Part shown: positions 8,435 through 59,778 of the stretch, piece after piece
How the letters are laid out: every line of letters begins with the position of its first letter
Numbering within the stretch: position 1 is the stretch's first letter
Assembly (NCBI GenBank): GCA_000437395.1
Contig: FR898166.1
Location: forward strand, 58,724-122,723
Direction: 5' to 3'
DNA from: Clostridium sp. CAG:288
GTDB taxonomy: Bacteria > Bacillota_I > Bacilli_A > RFN20 > CAG-288
Length of the DNA: 64,000 nucleotides
Made by a program: the position numbers and the translations under genes
The notes under the pieces: model-generated
What the model was told of the DNA's origin: nothing
Database searches by the model: none
What the model saw: only the letters and a program-made list of their open reading frames with translations

Positions 8435-8600
8435 TTTTATCTCTACGCATATATAAATAACATGGAATTCCATAAATTTATTGAAAATTGTTCAAAAATT
8501 ATTTCTTTTTTGTAATTAAATGTTGCAATTGAACAATATGTGATTAAAATATAGGTATATGGTAATTAGTTCCATTAATGTAAGGAAAGGAAATTTTAAA

Positions 8601-9077
8601 ATGAAGAAGAGATTAAAGAAAGGTTTTACCTTAGTTGAATTAGTCGTAGTTATTGCTATCATTGCAATTCTATCAGCTGTTTCAGTTGCTGGTTACTTCG
8701 GATTCACAACAAATGCTAGAAAGACAGCTACAAAGCAAGAAGCAAAAGATATTGCTAACTTAATTTTAGTTGTTGCTGCTGATGAAGAAACAACAGGTGT
8801 TACAAATGATGGAACAAAAGTTACACTTACTTATGAAGTTGTAACTGAAGATTCAGCTGTTGCAACTGGTAAATATAAATCTGATGCTGATGCATTAATT
8901 GCTGCTTTAGCAACAGCAGGTTGGACAATGCCAACAGATGCAAAACTTACTGAAGTTATAGAAACTGGTGTTACTAATGGTGCAACAGATAAAGAAATCA
9001 AAACATTAAAATACGAACACAATAGCTTTGCATATACCATTACAGTTGGTACTGGTGATGTAGCATTTGTTGCTTAA
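8601..9077 (+). CDS. type IV pilin / competence-pilus major pilin (class III signal peptide)
   Basis: MKKRLKKG|FTLVELVVVIAIIAILSAV is the canonical prepilin leader with Gly-1 and Glu+5. AGGAAAGGAA RBS upstream of the ATG at 8601. The track start at 8559 is probably too far upstream. Confidence 0.8.
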   Translation: MKKRLKKGFTLVELVVVIAIIAILSAVSVAGYFGFTTNARKTATKQEAKDIANLILVVAADEETTGVTNDGTKVTLTYEVVTEDSAVATGKYKSDADALIAALATAGWTMPTDAKLTEVIETGVTNGATDKEIKTLKYEHNSFAYTITVGTGDVAFVA

Positions 9078-9112
9078 TTAATTAAACTAGTCTCAAAAAA
9101 AGATAATATAAA

Positions 9113-9140
9113 GACTGTGGTGAAAAGCCACAGTTTTTTA
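9113..9140 (+). terminator. rho-independent terminator or attenuator immediately after the major pilin gene
   Basis: GACTGTGG-tgaaaag-CCACAGT stem-loop followed by TTTTTTA. This arrangement is typical between major and minor pilin genes. Confidence 0.6.
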
Positions 9141-9311
9141 TTGCCATAAAATAACTAATCATGCTACGAATGTAGATAAATTAATATAAAAGGCATTTTT
9201 ATATCGTTATATATGTCTAATTTGATCGAATTATATAAAAAATATCTATTATTAATTACTAAAGTAATTAAAATATATCACTGAATAATGTTTTAATGTT
9301 ATAATTAAATC

Positions 9312-9782
9312 ATGAATAAATATAAGTCACACAAAAGATTTAAGCTTGGTTTTACTTTAGTAGAATTAGTTGTTACTTTAGCACTTATTGCAATTGTTAC
9401 TGGAATGACTTCTACTTTTTTATACATGTTTATAAAAATTAACAATAATATCGATACTTATAGAAAGACTTATCAAAATGCTAATTCAATAGCTTATATT
9501 CTTTCAACGTTTGTCGATCAAAAAAATGATGGCGGTTTAAGTGTTGGAAGTGAGAATAACTTGTTAAATTATACAGATGAAGAAAACACATATACACTTT
9601 ACTACAACTCTGAAACTGATGAGCTTATTTATAACGATAAAAGTCTATATGCTTCTGAAGATAATAGTTTAGAAATATCGATAACTTATCTTGAAAAATA
9701 TGAAGATAAACAATTAATTAAATTTGAAATTAGTTATGACAACAACAAAAGATCGATGTCTTTAATTAAGACTCTATACTGA
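9312..9782 (+). CDS. minor (pseudo)pilin with prepilin leader
   Basis: MNKYKSHKRFKLG|FTLVELVVTLALIAIV class III signal. Confidence 0.75.
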   Translation: MNKYKSHKRFKLGFTLVELVVTLALIAIVTGMTSTFLYMFIKINNNIDTYRKTYQNANSIAYILSTFVDQKNDGGLSVGSENNLLNYTDEENTYTLYYNSETDELIYNDKSLYASEDNSLEISITYLEKYEDKQLIKFEISYDNNKRSMSLIKTLY

Positions 9783-9796
9783 TGAAAGGAGAAAAT

Positions 9797-11107
9797 ATGG
9801 CAAAGACTGTAAATAACAATATTAGCTTATGCATTGAATATGTTGATACTTATTTGACTTGCTGTTTTAATTGCTTTTATTTAGATCAAAAATCAGGAGA
9901 AATAATTAAGACGAACAAATTTAAAGTTGAAGGTGGAGACATAGTTTCAACTTCAGCAATGGAAATAAGAAAGATTGCTGAAGAGATAAAAAAAGATGCA
10001 AACGAATTAGGAAAAACAATTGTTGGAAAAATTAATTATGTCGTTGCATCTAAAAGTGTTTTCTCATATTCAAACATTTTTCCAAAGATAAACAAGAAAA
10101 AGATAGTGCAATATTCTCGTAGAGATTTAGAAATGTCTTTCCCAGATTTTAAAAAGAAGAATGTGTATATTGAAAACTGGCATGAAGATGGAAATTTAGG
10201 AACATGTATTTTAACTACTTTGTTGCCTATTACTGTTTTTGAAAGACTTGATTTGTTGTCACGTGAAATTGGTTTGAAAATGGGAAATGTCACAACATCA
10301 AGCGTTTGTTTAAACGAAAGATATAAACAAAATTATCCTGAAGAATTTGATTCTGGTGCTTTAATTAACATTGAAGCTGACTATACAGTTATAAGCTTGA
10401 TTGTAAATAAAGTTATGGTTGATTCAGTTTTTATCAATGAAGGATTTGAATCTGTTTCAGAAGATGAAAACACATTTTGTGCTTTAGTTAAAAATAGATT
10501 AATTTCTGTTATTGCTAAACATGAATTCGGACTTGAAAAAGCTTCAATTTCTACAATAAAGATTACTTCTACAAACAACATCATTTCTAGCGCTCTTGAA
10601 AAGTATTTAGAGAGTACAACATCGTTTGTAGTTGGTTATACTCAAGCAAAGGAATTAGCTTATTGTAACTTTGATACTAAGAAAAGCTTTGCTAAATTTA
10701 AAAAAGAGTTTTTTAAAAAAGGCTTCACTTTAGTTGAAGTTGTAGTTTCGTTAGCATTATTTGCTATTCTTTCAGGTGTAGCTTTAGGTTGTATTGTACC
10801 TATGACTAATACAGTTAAGAATGCTGAGAGAAATTCAAATATAAGTAGAACAGTAAATGATATAACTGAAACTTTTAGACTTTATCATGATAATTTTGCT
10901 ACTTATTATTATGAAATAAATAATGTTACTGGAGATATCGTAGAAAACAAATTATTTTACGATAAAGATGTTAACGTTATTTCTAGTGAAGAAAATAGTT
11001 TTTATACACTTAACTATACATTGGACGGATCAACATTAACTATAGACAGTTTTGTTAAAACTGGAACTACAAAAAGTTTATTAAAAAGTGTAACAATACG
11101 AGGCTAA
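9797..11107 (+). CDS. PilM-like (actin-like ATPase fold) N-terminal domain fused in frame to a C-terminal prepilin-type pseudopilin domain
   Basis: The first ~300 aa have PilM-like architecture: ISLCIEYVDTYL near the start and ADYTVISLIVNKVMVDSVFINEG later. Residues ~305 onward are KKG|FTLVEVVVSLALFAILSGV, a canonical class III signal. There is no in-frame or out-of-frame start codon between the two parts. The AAAGGAG RBS favours ATG 9797. Confidence 0.5.
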   Translation: MAKTVNNNISLCIEYVDTYLTCCFNCFYLDQKSGEIIKTNKFKVEGGDIVSTSAMEIRKIAEEIKKDANELGKTIVGKINYVVASKSVFSYSNIFPKINKKKIVQYSRRDLEMSFPDFKKKNVYIENWHEDGNLGTCILTTLLPITVFERLDLLSREIGLKMGNVTTSSVCLNERYKQNYPEEFDSGALINIEADYTVISLIVNKVMVDSVFINEGFESVSEDENTFCALVKNRLISVIAKHEFGLEKASISTIKITSTNNIISSALEKYLESTTSFVVGYTQAKELAYCNFDTKKSFAKFKKEFFKKGFTLVEVVVSLALFAILSGVALGCIVPMTNTVKNAERNSNISRTVNDITETFRLYHDNFATYYYEINNVTGDIVENKLFYDKDVNVISSEENSFYTLNYTLDGSTLTIDSFVKTGTTKSLLKSVTIRG

Positions 11108-11109
11108 AT

Positions 11110-11523
11110 ATGAAAAAGAGAAGAAGAGAAGAAAAAGGAGCTGTATTAATTGCTACCATCGCTATTCTGGCATTTGTTGGTATTATGATGGGCTTTTTAG
11201 GTCAGCTTGTTTTGTATACTTCAAACTATTCTTCTTCTTTAAATAATGCTTATAAGGTTAAAAGAATCCTAACTAATGATTGCTATTTATTTGTTGAAAA
11301 TATAGATTCATCAAAAACTATTGATGAAAATATCAGTACTATTTCAGGTTTGTTAGAAAATTCAAAATATGTTGATGAGTCTATGACTTATTACATCGAT
11401 ACGGATGTTAAAACTGGTGGTAATTTTTCTTTGACCTATAAAAGATATCAAGCAGATGTTGTATTTGTAATTAATGATTCATCTATAACTTTAAAAAGTT
11501 TAACTATAAAGGGAGCAAAATAA
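11110..11523 (+). CDS. pseudopilin-like bitopic protein lacking Glu+5 (ComGG/PilX-like or PilN-like)
   Basis: MKKRRREEKG|AVLIATIAILAFVGIMMGFL. Its C-terminal end (ITLKSLTIKGAK) resembles the C-terminus of the upstream fusion protein (SLLKSVTIRG), suggesting paralogy. Confidence 0.4.
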   Translation: MKKRRREEKGAVLIATIAILAFVGIMMGFLGQLVLYTSNYSSSLNNAYKVKRILTNDCYLFVENIDSSKTIDENISTISGLLENSKYVDESMTYYIDTDVKTGGNFSLTYKRYQADVVFVINDSSITLKSLTIKGAK

Positions 11524-12317
11524 TGGATTTATTTATTCAAATATTTATCGGAGTTTTGTTCTTTGTTATCGGTACAGTATTTGCAAGTTTTTCTAATGTT
11601 TTGATTTATAGATTACCGTTAGAACAATCTATAGCTTATCCTGCTAGTCATTGTCCTCAATGTGGTGCTGAACTCAAGTGGTATGAAAATATACCGCTTT
11701 TCAGCTATATATTTTTAAAAGGTAAATGTGGTCATTGCCATCAAAAAATATCTCCGAGATATTTTATTGTTGAACTGTTAGGCGGTTTATTATCATTAGC
11801 TTGTTATTTAAAACTTGGTTTTGGTGTCGACTCAGTAATAGGAGCAATTAGTGTCATAATTTTAGTAGCTATCGCCTTTATCGATGCTGAACACAAAATT
11901 ATTCCTTTATCGCTAAATATAACATTAGGTGTGTTAGCTATTCTTAAATTAGTATTAAATATTATTTTTACTCCAAACTATCCATGGGTTCATTATTTAA
12001 TTGGCTTTGGAGTATTTGCTGTTTTATTCTTAGCTGTCTATTTTTTAGCAATATTATTTTATAAGCAAGAAGGCCTTGGCTTAGGAGATGTAATTCTTAT
12101 GAGCATTTGTGGATTATATCTAAATTGGAGTGGAGCCTTTATTGTATTTTTAGCTTCATCTGTCATATGTGCAATTGTTATGATAATCTTAATAGCTATT
12201 AAAAAACTTAAGAGAAACGAAGAGTGGGGATTTGGTCCTTATATTGCAATTGCCTTTGTAATTATGATTTATTTCAGTAACGATTTGTTAAGTTATATAC
12301 TTAGCTTTTTATCGTAG
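11523..12317 (+). CDS. pilD: prepilin peptidase (A24 family)
   Basis: Zinc-binding CPQCG...CGHC N-terminal motif and multi-TM body of 264 aa. Located in the pilus operon. Confidence 0.85.
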   Translation: MDLFIQIFIGVLFFVIGTVFASFSNVLIYRLPLEQSIAYPASHCPQCGAELKWYENIPLFSYIFLKGKCGHCHQKISPRYFIVELLGGLLSLACYLKLGFGVDSVIGAISVIILVAIAFIDAEHKIIPLSLNITLGVLAILKLVLNIIFTPNYPWVHYLIGFGVFAVLFLAVYFLAILFYKQEGLGLGDVILMSICGLYLNWSGAFIVFLASSVICAIVMIILIAIKKLKRNEEWGFGPYIAIAFVIMIYFSNDLLSYILSFLS

Positions 12318-12329
12318 AAAGGAGAAAAG

Positions 12330-13574
12330 ATGCCTTACTTTCAATATAAGAGTATAACCATTGATGGAATAAAAAAAGATGGTACCAAAGAAGCTTCGAG
12401 TTATGAAGATCTCAAGTGTATCTTAAAAGATAAAGGTGAATACTTATTAGAAGCAAATATAGCTAAAGAAAAAAGACGTTCAAACTTCTTAACTGCAACA
12501 AATAGAGTTTCTCCTAGAGCAGTTGCAAACTTTTGTCGTCAATTTTCTATTCTTTTAGATGCTGGTGTCAGCGTTGCTGATAGCTTGGATGTTTTAAGAA
12601 AGCAAAATTTCTCAACATATTTTAAAAACGTTATTTCTGATATATATGATTCAGTTTTAAAAGGCATGTCCATCTCTGATGCTATGAGAAAATACCCAAA
12701 AATATTTAAATCATTTGTTGTCAATATGGTTCATATCGGTGAATTATCAGGTGACTTAACTAAAGTACTTATCAAAGTGGCTGATTACTTAGAAAACGAT
12801 CAGAAAATCAAGTCTAAAACTAAAAGTGCTATGGTTTATCCTTTATTTTTACTTGTAGTAGTCACAATTGTTACAGTAGTTTTGATGGTATTTGTCGTTC
12901 CTCAATTTGAAAAGATAATTCTTGAAAATGGTGGTAAAGTGCCTGGAATTACTAGAGTTGTTTTATCTATATCTCACTTCTTTACTGAATATTGGTTTAT
13001 TTTAATACCTGCTATTATAGTTGTTATTATGCTGTTAGTCTTCTTCTTTACTCGCACTCAAAAAGGAAAGTATTGTCGAAACTTTTTAGCCATTCATCTT
13101 CCAATATTAAAAACAGTTACAATTGAAACTATTACAACGAGATTTACTACAGCTTTTTCAATTTTAATTGATTCAGGTATGCCTGTAATTGATTCTATGG
13201 AAGCTTTGATACCAATTCTTGATAATAAATTCTTTGAATCGAAGTTTGTCTATGCTATTGAGGATATTCGTCGTGGTAAAAGAATAGCTCCATCAATTGA
13301 AAAATGTGATATTTTTCCAAAGATGCTTATAGAAATGTTAGATGTTGGTGAAGAGTCATCAAGACTTTCTGAAGTCTGCGATACAGTCAGTAAATACTAT
13401 TCAGCTCAATTAGCTAACTCCATTCAAAAGTTAAGTTCAATACTTGAACCTGTAGTTATAATTATCATGGGTGTATTAGTTGGAACAATTATACTAGCTG
13501 TATTCTTACCAATTATGGAAATGACAAATTCTATGGGAAATCTCGATAGTGATATTCCTGATTTAGATGTATAG
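12330..13574 (+). CDS. pilC: type IV pilus / T2SS platform protein (GspF/PilC family)
   Basis: 414 aa with two T2SSF-like cytoplasmic repeats separated by TM helices (VYPLFLLVVVTIVTVVLMVFV ... VVIIIMGVLVGTIILAVFLPI). Confidence 0.85.
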   Translation: MPYFQYKSITIDGIKKDGTKEASSYEDLKCILKDKGEYLLEANIAKEKRRSNFLTATNRVSPRAVANFCRQFSILLDAGVSVADSLDVLRKQNFSTYFKNVISDIYDSVLKGMSISDAMRKYPKIFKSFVVNMVHIGELSGDLTKVLIKVADYLENDQKIKSKTKSAMVYPLFLLVVVTIVTVVLMVFVVPQFEKIILENGGKVPGITRVVLSISHFFTEYWFILIPAIIVVIMLLVFFFTRTQKGKYCRNFLAIHLPILKTVTIETITTRFTTAFSILIDSGMPVIDSMEALIPILDNKFFESKFVYAIEDIRRGKRIAPSIEKCDIFPKMLIEMLDVGEESSRLSEVCDTVSKYYSAQLANSIQKLSSILEPVVIIIMGVLVGTIILAVFLPIMEMTNSMGNLDSDIPDLDV

Positions 13575-13583
13575 GAGGTAAAT

Positions 13584-15272
13584 ATGAACCTTAATCAACA
13601 AATTGCTGAGTTCTTTGTACAAAAAGGACTTATAGATCCAGAATCAAAGAATAAGATTTTAGCTGAATCAGAAGCAAAGTCTATTAGCTTTTATACTAGC
13701 TTATTAAAAGATCAAGTAGTTGATGAAACTAAAGTATTTGAAGCTTTGTCAGAGTTTTATTCATTAGAATTTTATAACACGTCTGTTTATAATTTGAACG
13801 AAGAGATTATTTCAAAAATTCCAATGTCTTTTATTAAAGACAATAGAATGATCCCTTTTGCTATAGAAAATAATTCACTTGTCGTTTTAATTGATGAGCC
13901 ATATAGAGTTGTCGATGTTGATGCTTTATCATACTTCTTTGATAAACCAATAGTAGTTAAACTTGTTACTACTTCAAGTATGAACGGCATGCTTGGTTAT
14001 ATTGATAATAGACGTAGAAGAGCTGATGCTATGTCAGCAATTTCAAACGAATTATCAGATGAAAAAAAGAATGTAAAAGTAACAATTGACGCATCACAAT
14101 TAATCGATGCTCCTACAGTTAAATTAACAGATTCAATAATTAGAGAAGCAACATTGACAGGCGCTTCTGATATTCATATTGAACCATTTGATGGCTTAGT
14201 CAGAGTAAGGTTCAGATTGGATGGTAAATTGTTTACTAACACTCAATTACCTGCAGAATCATTTCCAGCTATTTTAGCTCGTTTTAAGATTATGGCTGGC
14301 ATGGATATTTCAGAACGTCGTATTCCTCAAGATGGTAAGATAACTATGGAAATAGATGGAAGAAAATATGATTACCGTGTTTCCACAGTTCCTATGGCTT
14401 TTGGAGAAAAGATAGTTATTCGTATATTTGATACCTTTGATAATCATTCAGATATATCTAAATTAGGCTTGGATGAAAGACAAGAAAAATTAGTCAGAAG
14501 AATGATTAGTTATCCACATGGTATTTTACTTTTGACAGGTCCAACAGGTTCAGGTAAAACAACATCTTTGTACTCATTCTTAAAGTCTTTGAATAAAGAA
14601 GATGTAAATATTACTACTATTGAAGATCCAATTGAAAATAACATTTCAGGAGTTAACCAAATCCAAGTTAATTCTAAAGTAAACATGACTTTTGCTGCTG
14701 CTTTAAGAGCAATTTTAAGACAAGACCCTAACATTATTATGATCGGTGAAATTAGAGATGAAGAAACAGCAGAAATCGCTGTAAAAGCCGCTATCACTGG
14801 TCACTTGGTTCTTTCGACTCTTCACACCAATAGCGCTCATGGAACTATTTCACGTTTAGTAGATATGGGTATACCTAAATACTTAGTTGCTGACGCTTTG
14901 ATTGGTGCTATTTCTCAAAGATTAGTTAGAAAACTTTGTCCAAACTGCAAAAAGCCGCACATGACAACGCCTGAAGAAATGAAAGAACTAGGTTTGACTG
15001 AACCAGTTCAAATATATGAACCAGGATCTTGTGGCAATTGCAATAATACAGGTTATCATGGAAGAACAGGTGTCTTTGAAATATTAAACATGAATCCAAC
15101 AATTAAAAAAGCTATTGAAATGCCTGAATTTTCCATGGAGACTATTTATGATGCTTGCGTTAGTAGTGGTATGATTCCACTTAAGGAAGCAGCAAAGAAA
15201 TTAGTATTAGAAGGAGTAACATCATACTCTGAATATATAGCTTTATTAGACAATGATACGGAGATTAAATAA
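13584..15272 (+). CDS. pilB: type IV pilus assembly ATPase (GspE/PilB/ComGA family)
   Basis: GspE N-terminal domain, Walker A GPTGSGKTT, Asp and His boxes, and tetracysteine CPNC...CGNC zinc motif. Confidence 0.9.
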   Translation: MNLNQQIAEFFVQKGLIDPESKNKILAESEAKSISFYTSLLKDQVVDETKVFEALSEFYSLEFYNTSVYNLNEEIISKIPMSFIKDNRMIPFAIENNSLVVLIDEPYRVVDVDALSYFFDKPIVVKLVTTSSMNGMLGYIDNRRRRADAMSAISNELSDEKKNVKVTIDASQLIDAPTVKLTDSIIREATLTGASDIHIEPFDGLVRVRFRLDGKLFTNTQLPAESFPAILARFKIMAGMDISERRIPQDGKITMEIDGRKYDYRVSTVPMAFGEKIVIRIFDTFDNHSDISKLGLDERQEKLVRRMISYPHGILLLTGPTGSGKTTSLYSFLKSLNKEDVNITTIEDPIENNISGVNQIQVNSKVNMTFAAALRAILRQDPNIIMIGEIRDEETAEIAVKAAITGHLVLSTLHTNSAHGTISRLVDMGIPKYLVADALIGAISQRLVRKLCPNCKKPHMTTPEEMKELGLTEPVQIYEPGSCGNCNNTGYHGRTGVFEILNMNPTIKKAIEMPEFSMETIYDACVSSGMIPLKEAAKKLVLEGVTSYSEYIALLDNDTEIK

Positions 15273-56618: not shown

Positions 56619-56678
56619 AGAGCTTAATTCAAAAGTAATACTGTAATCAGTTATTTCTTAAGAGTTAAGCTCTTTTTA
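56619..56678 (+). terminator. putative terminator after the NifU-like/GGGtGRT operon
   Basis: AGAGCTTAA ... TTAAGCTCT stem with a long loop, followed by TTTTT. Confidence 0.4.
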
Positions 56679-56768
56679 TATGCTTTATTTATTTTTTGGG
56701 GCATTTTAACAAAAAAAGTAGGATTTTGTCGAAATTTTCCCATATATAAAATAGGAGGATAGACAGAA

Positions 56769-57149
56769 ATGACTTATAAAGAAATGTCTAAAGAATTAAA
56801 AGAGATTGCTAAGACTTACAATAGAAGCTTACAAGATCTAATTGTAAATGGCGCACAAATTAAAGAAGGATTTTTATTTGATCCATCTAAAAGAAATGAT
56901 GAGTACGCGTTTTTCCAGTTTAAGGGAACAAACTCATCGACAATTAACGCTGAAAGGTTTGTTTTAAGTGTCAATTTTGCTCTGACATGTCTAAAAACTG
57001 AATATAGAACAATCTTATGGCACGATTATTTCCGCAAAGCAGAAAATGGATGGTGGATTTCTTATTTTTCTAAAACATCGTATTATCGAAATAGACGAGA
57101 GGCAGTAAAAGAATTTATGGAGATAAAAATGGATGCTAACAACTTTTAA
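56769..57149 (+). CDS. small sigma-70 region-4-like transcriptional regulator (ArpU/RinA-type phage-like activator)
   Basis: 126 aa. The C-terminal LKTEYRTILWHDYFRKAENGWWISYFSKTSYYRNRREAVKEF matches the sigma region 4 HTH spacing. AGGAGGA RBS. Confidence 0.5.
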   Translation: MTYKEMSKELKEIAKTYNRSLQDLIVNGAQIKEGFLFDPSKRNDEYAFFQFKGTNSSTINAERFVLSVNFALTCLKTEYRTILWHDYFRKAENGWWISYFSKTSYYRNRREAVKEFMEIKMDANNF

Positions 57150-57867
57150 GAATAGTTTATCTATTTTATTCTTTTTGCCTTTATTAGTTTTTGATCAAAA
57201 TAATAATCATGTTTCTGATATAAAAATTAAAACTGTTGATAATGGATATGAAGTTTCTTTTATTGCTAATAGTTTGATTGATGAGACTTTAAAAGTTACA
57301 TATAAAGAAAACATTAAAATATTGTGCGATAATTTAGGAAAAAATAATTATTCGTTTATTATCAATTTTCATGAATTTGATGGTGGAAATGATAACATTT
57401 ATTTTTATTTAGGCGATGATGTTTTTAATGCTAATGTCATAAATTATATAAATAACGAATTTAATAAAAAAACAGATTATATATTTACTCGTCCTATAGG
57501 CATAGATACAAATTCGAAATTTATTTATGAAACTTTAATTATTGAACCGCTCGAATTTGAATTGTGGTCAAATTGTAATTATTATGTTGGTCCAATTGTT
57601 AAGTTTAAGTCAAATAAAGATTATGAAGAAATAAAAGATTATTGCTTTTCTGTAACAACAAAAACTTTTAGTAAAAATTTAAAGATAGTTAAAGATCTGG
57701 ATAATTATATGCTTGCTTTGGATTATATAAATGTCAGTTTGAATAACGAACTTTTAGACTATTCTATAAATTTTAATGATCAAATACTTGTTAGAGGAAA
57801 AATATTATCACATAAAACTTTTGATAGCAAAAATGGAATAGGTGAATATGAAATACATCAAATTTAA
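57133..57867 (+). CDS. secreted or membrane-anchored hypothetical protein
   Basis: 244 aa with N-terminal hydrophobic signal LSILFFLPLLVF. About 21% GC. Overlaps the upstream gene by 17 nt. Confidence 0.5.
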   Translation: MLTTFKNSLSILFFLPLLVFDQNNNHVSDIKIKTVDNGYEVSFIANSLIDETLKVTYKENIKILCDNLGKNNYSFIINFHEFDGGNDNIYFYLGDDVFNANVINYINNEFNKKTDYIFTRPIGIDTNSKFIYETLIIEPLEFELWSNCNYYVGPIVKFKSNKDYEEIKDYCFSVTTKTFSKNLKIVKDLDNYMLALDYINVSLNNELLDYSINFNDQILVRGKILSHKTFDSKNGIGEYEIHQI

Positions 57868-58198
57868 TTTGTCTTTTTTAATTATATTCATCGGTTTGAA
57901 TTATATATATTTCAATTTTGGTAAAAATAAATTTAATTTTCAAATTGAAAGTTTTTTAAAAGAGAATTTAAAAAAAGCATTTTTAGACAATGTTGTTTTT
58001 GTTGATGAAAAACCAATGATTGATTCAGATAATTTAATAAAAGAATATAGTTATTTAGTTTATCAAAAATATAGAGAAGCTGAAATAACACAAATTTACA
58101 TTGATGATGAATATAAAAAATATGTATATAGCATTAAAGAGATAGTAACTATAGATGAAGTTAAATATGAGGTTGGGTATGGAATTAAAGAAAAGTAA
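57848..58198 (+). CDS. small N-terminally anchored membrane protein, hypothetical
   Basis: TM FNLSFLIIFIGLNYIYF followed by an ~85-aa charged domain. Overlaps the upstream gene by 20 nt. Confidence 0.45.
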   Translation: MKYIKFNLSFLIIFIGLNYIYFNFGKNKFNFQIESFLKENLKKAFLDNVVFVDEKPMIDSDNLIKEYSYLVYQKYREAEITQIYIDDEYKKYVYSIKEIVTIDEVKYEVGYGIKEK

Positions 58199-58844
58199 GA
58201 TTAAATTTTATCTTTCTATAGTTATAGCTATTTTGGTTTGGTTGTTGTTTTTATATGTAAATATAAGAAATTATATAAACATTTTTATTATTGTTATAGG
58301 AACTTTAAGTGTTGTTTTATTTTCTAGTTTGTATTATTCAGTTTTAAAATCATATTATGTTAGAACATGTTCTTTCGCTTTTGCGCGTTCTTTATTATTT
58401 AATTTAAAATGGGGCGCAAATTATAAAGAAAGTTTAGAAGCAAGTTGTGAAAAAATAAAAGGCATAAATATTAATATTTCATTAGAAGACACATCTCTTT
58501 CATTGGAGTTCAAGAAACTAAAGTTAGGTTATTTAAATTCGTTAATTACTACTATTATAGACAGCGCTAATAATGGTAAAAAGCTTTTTATAAGAAGTAT
58601 GTCAATCGATTATATTTTAAAAAAGGAAATAGATAAAAAAAACGAAATTGAGTTAAATTTATCAAATACTTTATCCGCGTTTTTACAAATTAACTGTATT
58701 AATTTGATTTTGTTTTTTATGTGCGTAATAAATCAAAGCTTTGAAATAATAATTTCAAATTCGATTATGTATATTTGGCTAATAATCATATTAAGTAACT
58801 TATGCTTCACATTAGTTTTAAATGGTATTAAAGGAGAAATATAA
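58179..58844 (+). CDS. polytopic membrane protein (two N-terminal TMs, helical cytoplasmic domain, C-terminal TMs)
   Basis: GAGGT RBS 5 nt before ATG 58179. Hydrophobic segments YLSIVIAILVWLLFLY, IFIIVIGTLSVVLFSSLYY and C-terminal INLILFFMCVI ... IWLIIILSNLCFTLVL. The topology resembles GspF/TadB-type platform proteins (inference). Confidence 0.5.
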   Translation: MELKKSKIKFYLSIVIAILVWLLFLYVNIRNYINIFIIVIGTLSVVLFSSLYYSVLKSYYVRTCSFAFARSLLFNLKWGANYKESLEASCEKIKGININISLEDTSLSLEFKKLKLGYLNSLITTIIDSANNGKKLFIRSMSIDYILKKEIDKKNEIELNLSNTLSAFLQINCINLILFFMCVINQSFEIIISNSIMYIWLIIILSNLCFTLVLNGIKGEI

Positions 58845-59458
58845 TGAAAAATAAGATTAAAATAGAAAAAGAAGAAAAGTATTATTTATTTATAATTTTA
58901 ATTGGGATAGTTTTAACTTTCTTAATTTATTATTTTTATCGTCAGTTTTATTTATCGTTAGTTCCATTACTTGTTTCACTTAGCGTTTCTTTTATTCTTT
59001 TTTATTTCAATAGTGAATTGAAGAAAAGAAAAGTAGAAAAAAAAGCTGAATCAATGCTAGGTTTTTATATGAGCATCAATCAACAGTTAACTTTAGGCAA
59101 TTCTTTTAAAGATAGCGCCATAAAAGCTATTAGCGAGATTGTTGATGAAAATTTAAAGAAAGATATACAAGAATATTTTAACGAGGAGAATGTTGGATCT
59201 GGTGTTTTAGATATTTCAATCTTAAATACTGATACAGAAAAAGAGTTATGTAGCTTGTTTTTATATGGAATAACTCATCAAATAAACGCTGAATTTAAAG
59301 ATAATTTTTTTCAACTTTGTGATATGTATAAAGATGAAGTTAATATTAAAATTGGCAATAAAAAGAATTACGAAAAGTATATTGAGTATATAAGTGTATT
59401 TGTGACTTTGATAATTGCTATTTTATTAACTTATAAGCTTTTTAACTCATTATTATGA
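58844..59458 (+). CDS. polytopic membrane protein, same architecture as the upstream gene
   Basis: AAAGGAGA RBS. TAATG overlap with the upstream stop. TMs YLFIILIGIVLTFLIYYF, LVPLLVSLSVSFILFYF and C-terminal ISVFVTLIIAILLTY. The central helical domain has a GspF-like F...L..G.S...A pattern. Confidence 0.5.
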   Translation: MKNKIKIEKEEKYYLFIILIGIVLTFLIYYFYRQFYLSLVPLLVSLSVSFILFYFNSELKKRKVEKKAESMLGFYMSINQQLTLGNSFKDSAIKAISEIVDENLKKDIQEYFNEENVGSGVLDISILNTDTEKELCSLFLYGITHQINAEFKDNFFQLCDMYKDEVNIKIGNKKNYEKYIEYISVFVTLIIAILLTYKLFNSLL

Positions 59459-59778
59459 ATAAAAATTTATATATAAATCTAATAGTTTCTTTGATATTTA
59501 TTTTGATAATTTATGATTTTTATAGCTTATCAAAATATAAAGAATTATTGCAAAACTGTATGGAAGTAACAAACAAGTGTTTATTTGAAAATAAAAATCC
59601 TAATGAATACTTACCTACTAACACAAAGTATACGTGCAATACGAATTGTGAATACGAAAGTGGAAGAGTAGTAGAATATAAATTAAGTGTTAAATCTTCT
59701 TTTTTTATTAATCCTTTTCAAAAAGAGGTTAGTGAAACGTATTATTATTTTGTATCTGATGTAAAGTTTTACGAATGA
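59455..59778 (+). CDS. small membrane-anchored protein with a four-Cys extracytoplasmic domain
   Basis: ATGA overlap with the upstream stop. TM LYINLIVSLIFILIIY, then CMEVTNKC...YTCNTNCEY (4 Cys). Confidence 0.4.
   Translation: MNKNLYINLIVSLIFILIIYDFYSLSKYKELLQNCMEVTNKCLFENKNPNEYLPTNTKYTCNTNCEYESGRVVEYKLSVKSSFFINPFQKEVSETYYYFVSDVKFYE

Follow-up and report, generated by a model that had tools for sequence, protein, structure and literature searches.

A run of six short, overlapping and very AT-rich genes in the genome of Clostridium sp. CAG:288 raises the question of what its products, which include a small regulator-like protein, a secreted protein and several membrane proteins, might build together. 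The window that we analysed is a 64,000-nucleotide stretch of contig FR898166.1 (positions 58,724 to 122,723), and all coordinates below are those of the window.

Six coupled genes conserved in a second species

The block at 56769-59778 consists of six consecutive overlapping ORFs on the plus strand, g1 to g6, with gene overlaps of 17, 20, 20, 1, and 4 nt, which bears out their description as an overlapping set in a preceding sequence-only reading. The features of the locus are listed here, with L002 denoting the corresponding locus of a second species:

56620..56679, plus strand: intrinsic terminator hairpin with T-run, which ends the upstream GGGtGRT gene and forms the left border of the locus
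56717..56768, plus strand: leader with candidate promoter/operator block AGTAGGATTTTGTCGAA ... CCATATATAAAAT and the g1 ribosome-binding site, recognised by near-identity between window and L002
56769-57149, plus strand: g1, 126 aa
57133-57867, plus strand: g2, 244 aa
57842-58198, plus strand: g3 ORF, likely start ATG 57848 (~116 aa), judged from the L002 orthologue
58155-58844, plus strand: g4 ORF, likely start ATG 58179 (221 aa), shared with P0001 and L002
58844-59458, plus strand: g5, 204 aa
59455-59778, plus strand: g6, 107 aa

Hydropathy assigns a single N-terminal hydrophobic segment to each of g2, g3, and g6, two N-terminal and two C-terminal transmembrane (TM) segments to g4, and two N-terminal and one C-terminal to g5; the segments enclose a helical domain of ~110 aa in g4 and ~125 aa in g5.

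The species of the window has been assembled independently from three other samples (L001, L128, and L129), and L002 carries the same six genes with 68-95% protein identity and dN/dS of 0.02-0.23, so these are true genes and not chance ORFs. The individual dN/dS values are 0.02 (g1), 0.18 (g2), 0.16 (g3), 0.16 (g4), 0.15 (g5), and 0.23 (g6), at a dS of about 0.7-1.3, and none of the six frames is broken in either species. Proteins g2 to g6 are under purifying selection and are 68-75% identical between the two species, versus 97% for tig and mgtE; g1 is 95% identical.

The GC content is 23.2% for the whole block, 31% for g1 and 19.4-23.3% for g2 to g6, which makes the latter the most AT-rich genes of a window whose genes average 30.0% (sd 4.7). 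They form the end of a continuum that also includes orf271 (24.3%) and two further genes (~24.7%). The compositional contrast drawn earlier thus stands insofar as no gene of the window is lower in GC than g2 to g6, but was overstated, since the upstream NifU-like and GGGtGRT genes used for comparison are its most GC-rich (42%).

Both proposed borders were recovered. The upstream hairpin has a folding energy of -24.3 kcal/mol (z = -5.8; 0 of 200 shuffles equally stable), and its stem is kept in L002 despite a different upstream gene there, an intact enolase followed by a 3' remnant of GGGtGRT. The downstream gene is DapA (TIGR00674, 210.5 bits, cut-off 206). The downstream context is the same in L002, and the context of the block is identical in four assemblies; with a low GC that is shared with fast-evolving neighbours, this speaks against the suggested genomic island. 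The leader is almost unchanged between window and L002, while the stretch between it and the hairpin has diverged. It contains the g1 ribosome-binding site AGGAGG at 56753-56758 and may include the promoter, as its conservation suggests, although the plus strand showed no canonical -35/-10 pair at a spacing of 17 nt.

The first gene encodes an MG284/MPN403-family protein

The g1 protein matches NF045770 (MG284/MPN403_C) with 70.6 bits, nearly twice the cut-off of 37.3 (E 7.7e-20), and residues 64-119 align to model positions 1-56 of 57, i.e., over the full length of this C-terminal domain model from a Mycoplasma family. We found 130 representatives of g1 relatives among 1.84 billion proteins; all 68 that were aligned match NF045770, and the family carries the signature W-W-x2-Y-Y-S-[KR]-S-x-Y-Y-R. 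The phage_arpU model TIGR01637 is matched by 23 of these 68 (best E 5e-8) and not by the window g1 at E <= 1, which has a weak match to PHROG 248 'transcriptional activator' (E 1.7e-4). Judged by these profiles, g1 is a chromosomal member of the MG284/MPN403 family and distantly related to phage ArpU regulators, so the ArpU likeness noted earlier holds as kinship. No sequence relative of g1 was found in the PDB, and a literature search on MG284/MPN403 returned nothing relevant on the function of the family.

Like the ArpU/RinA/Ltr activators of phages, g1 is small, has a conserved C-terminal domain and is the first gene, placed just before the genes that it presumably activates; we presume it to be the transcription activator of the operon. 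ArpU-family/Ltr proteins are phage-encoded, lie upstream of terS and have three 7-nt direct repeats at the 3' end of their gene (PMC3753634). In contrast, g1 is chromosomal with a family signature of its own, no repeat of 7 nt or longer is present three times around its 3' end (56950-57230), and many of its homologues lie upstream of ACP and PtsI genes and not of terminase genes. The family motif had 0 matches in 2.9 million viral contigs, and tblastn of g1 against 50,697 phage and 72,556 plasmid records found none. Together with the membrane-protein genes downstream, these results set g1 apart from the ArpU phage regulators proper.

A fuller operon in related genomes

A scan with a degenerate motif of the g1 family yielded 119 genome loci, 118 of which have a g1-family ORF by phmmer. 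About 40 of the 119 carry an operon of the g1-g6 type, which answers the earlier call to look for the set in other genomes. A fuller form with an ATPase was assigned to 14 loci, some of them cut by the end of the 8-kb locus and thus not all complete. It comprises, in order, g1, a secreted protein of ~320 aa, an anchored protein of ~130 aa, a TadA/VirB11-type ATPase, two platform proteins, an anchored protein of ~112 aa, and a pilin-like protein of ~50 aa. The ATPase matches Pfam T2SSE at 5e-22, and in NCBIfam it comes closest to VirB11, TadA-family, and FlaI, each under cut-off. The short pilin-like proteins are of the MSE[IF]K[GA]Q type; they do not match Flp_Fap and are missing Glu5. The fuller form is best read as a Tad-like pilus operon of gut Bacilli that had not been annotated before, and it is the comparison with these operons, which have both the ATPase and the pilin-like gene, that identifies the system in the window.

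The window and 17 other loci (18 in total) have a reduced form without ATPase and pilin, in which the genes overlap tightly and pseudogene fragments are missing. The loci form a graded size series that runs from R1 through a fused R2 and a mini R3 to loci with g1 alone before ACP and PtsI. The ~567-aa neighbour of some g1 homologues, which initially looked like a terminase, is PtsI. The direction of change (loss versus gain of ATPase and pilin) is read from a rough NJ tree of the 126-aa protein.

Platform, pseudopilin-like and secreted proteins

The sequence-only reading had likened the topology of g4 and g5 to half-size TadB/GspF proteins, and this likeness is upheld for g5 by profiles and for g4 by position. 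When the window is searched in all six frames, g5 is the top match of the HMMs of both fuller-form platform proteins, P1_C (E 1.4e-5) and P2_C (E 1.7e-5). After iteration these recruit g5 at ~1e-41, with no off-target for P1_C and one off-chain ORF (L097) for P2_C. An hhalign comparison of window plus L002 g5 gives 79.8% against P1_C and 74.7% against P2_C, and phmmer links g5 to the g5 of L032 at 3e-6. P2_C in turn matches four Pfam-verified T2SSF domains at 93.1% (P1 and P2 merged, 91.6%); reversed-sequence hhalign controls stay below 8%. An AlphaFold2 model of one P1 member (pLDDT 86.4) has a GspF/PilC-like soluble domain. On these profile matches, g5 is a homologue of the P1/P2 platform proteins, which are TadB/TadC-like with a single T2SSF-type domain, although neither g4 nor g5 matches Pfam T2SSF itself.

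For g4, the proteins from L032, L062, and L083 match P1_C at 96.7%. We assign the window g4 as counterpart of P1 by synteny and topology, because g4 from window and L002 alone gives 0.4-2.8% against the platform profiles; an AlphaFold2 model of g4 from three sequences had a pLDDT of 39, too low for use.

The four-cysteine, N-terminally anchored g6 is connected through intermediates to protein Q of the fuller operon. In hhalign-type comparisons, window plus L002 g6 matches the other R1 g6 proteins at 92.5%, these match g6_R2 at 92.1%, and g6_R2 matches Q_C at 95.5%; Q_C matches DUF4320 of the pLS20 family at 22.8 bits. The g6_R2 HMM ranks the window g6 first, yet with an E of only 0.02. Through this transitive chain, g6 is the counterpart of Q, in the position of the DUF4320 or TadE/F-like pseudopilin. 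Reading the sequences of g3 and g6 revealed no G/A cleavage motif.

The remaining two proteins are placed by their surroundings. By position, size, and N-terminal segment, g2 would be the counterpart of the secreted A protein (~280-370 aa) of related operons; it gives no signal against the A_C and g2_R2 profiles, even at the profile-profile level, and no match in Pfam, NCBIfam, PHROGs, PADLOC, or the PDB. By position and topology, g3 would correspond to protein B, in the position of the DUF5411-like pLS20 gene 36. The B_C and g3_R2 profiles match p126 of the pLS20 family at 15.9 and 14.6 bits, while the window g3 itself gives no signal with the counterpart profiles, the profile-profile level included.

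Comparison with Tad pili and pLS20-type conjugation operons

Key components of the type IV filament superfamily are a T2SSE ATPase, an integral-membrane T2SSF platform (two single-domain genes in Tad), a major pilin bearing a class III signal peptide, and a prepilin peptidase (PMC6668835). The fuller operon is collinear with clostridial Tad loci such as those of Alkaliphilus pB6464 (CpaF, two T2SSF, Flp, A24 peptidase, and TadE) and Thermoanaerobacterium pMU3262 (CpaB, a TadZ-like protein, TadA, two platform proteins, a 64-aa pilin-like protein, and DUF4320). With Tad/Flp (type IVc) systems of Bacillota it shares a pair of single-domain platform proteins in tandem behind the ATPase, like TadB/TadC (PMC6668835), followed by small N-terminally anchored pseudopilin-like proteins, with DUF4320 in common with the Thermoanaerobacterium locus. 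The full relatives also have a very short pilin with a leader of the type K-G/A followed by Q, and their ATPase profile scores 122-136 bits against the CpaF/TadA proteins of Alkaliphilus and Thermoanaerobacterium. Unlike these systems, the operon begins with a regulator of the MG284/ArpU-like type and with a large secreted protein, and the pilin of the full relatives differs in its missing Glu5 and Flp_Fap match. The window block, moreover, is without ATPase, pilin, TadZ, CpaB, and dedicated peptidase, and its platform proteins fall under the Pfam T2SSF threshold.

The other close parallel is a module of the conjugation operon of pLS20-family Bacillus plasmids, where gene 37 is a putative VirB11 and genes 36 and 38-41 are given as 'unknown' (PMC8557374). 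Genes 36-41 encode an anchored protein of ~126 aa, the ATPase, membrane proteins of ~267 and ~245 aa, a DUF4320 protein of ~120 aa, and a single-TM protein of ~47 aa, and are collinear with the fuller operon in order and sizes. The fuller-operon profiles match every position: the ATPase reaches 251 bits, and among the others P2 scores 37 bits against p245, Q 23 bits against DUF4320, and B 16 bits against p126. The pLS20-type ATPase, at 33-34% identity, is the closest relative of the fuller-form ATPase in the plasmid collection. The plasmid module differs in being embedded in a T4SS conjugation operon that also contains VirB4, VirD4, and VirB6, none of which accompany the chromosomal operons, whereas the latter add g1 and the secreted A/g2 protein. 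The window form has no counterparts of genes 37 and 41; it retains four of the six positions, with direct sequence support for g5 only and transitive support for g6.

The motor and the pilin are absent from the block

Neither 56769-59778 nor the L002 locus encodes a T2SSE secretion ATPase, which confirms by profile search that the block lacks an ATPase, as had been read from the sequence. Six-frame searches of window and L002 with the pil_C profile found nothing, and neither the window nor the 17 other reduced loci contain ATPase or pilin remnants, with positive controls at 450-513 and 81-96 bits. The sole T2SSE of the window is PilB (13584-15272), part of a canonical type IV pilus cluster with PilB, PilC, PilD, and pilins at 8559-15272, 43 kb upstream of the block. 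An A24 prepilin peptidase, of a kind that may be shared between systems, is encoded within that stretch at 11523-12317, outside the block. As the survey covered 64 kb of the genome, genes for an ATPase and a pilin could lie in another part of it.

A proposed reduced Tad-like machine and its alternatives

We favour, at a probability of roughly 0.6, the reading that the block, a chromosomal operon passed on vertically, encodes in reduced form a Tad-like (type IV filament) membrane machine of uncultured gut Bacilli/Erysipelotrichales, whose full version would include a DUF4320-like pseudopilin and a Flp-like pilin. Of the two roles proposed earlier, this agrees with the degenerate pilus- or secretion-like membrane module, as relatives of g5 and g6 adjoin a T2SSE ATPase and a pilin-like gene. 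The other role, a secreted effector or bacteriocin (g2 or g6) under the regulator, with the membrane proteins for immunity or export, would suit the export-like N-terminal segment of g2, the small size and four cysteines of g6, and a set of fast-evolving AT-rich genes behind a small activator. We nevertheless consider it very improbable, given that Pfam, NCBIfam, PHROGs, and PADLOC yielded no match to a bacteriocin, immunity, ABC, or peptidase family, that g5 and g6 are homologous to pilus-type components in related genomes, and that the chromosomal context is fixed and not a variable island. Little credence is likewise due to a sigma/anti-sigma-like signalling system without any pilus link, with g1 as a minimal sigma-like factor that the membrane proteins would retain. 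The small size of g1, its basic and aromatic-rich C-terminal helix region, the translationally coupled membrane proteins right after it, and the Sigma70_r4 similarity of other Ltr-superfamily members (PMC3753634) are in line with this idea, but neither g1 nor any of its 68 relatives matches Sigma70 region 2 or 4. At the sequence level this also leaves unsupported the TcdR/UviA-type or sigma-70 region 4 likeness noted earlier for g1, which matches no Pfam family at E <= 1. Furthermore, homologues of g1 occur directly before ACP/PtsI with no membrane partner, and g5 and g6 are related to pilus-machine proteins.

The hint of phage origin that the ArpU/RinA similarity carried did not hold up either. 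A prophage or mobile-element remnant, with an ArpU-type late activator driving holin, lysis, or conjugation-type membrane genes, could draw on that distant similarity, on the weak PHROG match, and on the closest characterised kin of the full module being in pLS20-type conjugation operons. It is hardly plausible in view of the viral, phage, and plasmid searches with g1, a search of the 72,556 plasmid records with g5 that found no match, the lack of integrase, terminase, relaxase, VirB4, or VirD4 nearby, the PtsI identity of the terminase-looking neighbour, the missing Ltr-type repeats, and the constant context in four assemblies. The locus might instead be a decaying remnant, whose remaining genes, having no function of their own once ATPase and pilin are gone, drift towards deletion, with a g1 homologue beside ACP/PtsI as the end point. 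The lower conservation of g2 to g6 compared with tig and mgtE, their GC content, and the shrinking series agree with decay, and no motor-less type IV filament machine is known to work. Six intact frames in two species with dN/dS of 0.15-0.23 over this dS are, however, not neutral, and the ATPase-less layout persists at 18 loci, still tightly overlapped and free of pseudogene fragments, so we regard decay as unlikely.

In the favoured reading of a reduced Tad-like machine, the window form would keep the regulator g1, the secreted g2, the anchored accessory proteins g3 and g6, and the platform pair g4/g5, whereas both the motor ATPase and the major pilin would have been lost cleanly. The regulator g1 would switch on transcription of these translationally coupled genes, and the membrane platform of g4 and g5, together with g3 and g6, may hold or display g2 at the cell surface. 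The platform might work without filament assembly or, more speculatively, borrow the PilB ATPase and the PilD peptidase in trans from the type IV pilus cluster.

We also put forward, as a tentative and rather doubtful extension, that motor-less and pilin-less Tad-like derivatives are a conserved, functional class of membrane complexes in gut Bacilli under ArpU-like MG284/MPN403 control, with the platform pair and the two pseudopilin-like proteins either exapted, e.g., for anchoring or displaying the fast-evolving g2, or served in trans by type IVa PilB/PilD. If this is true, the lone MG284/MPN403-family copies in Erysipelotrichaceae, and putatively those in Mycoplasma too, would represent the final vestige of this locus.

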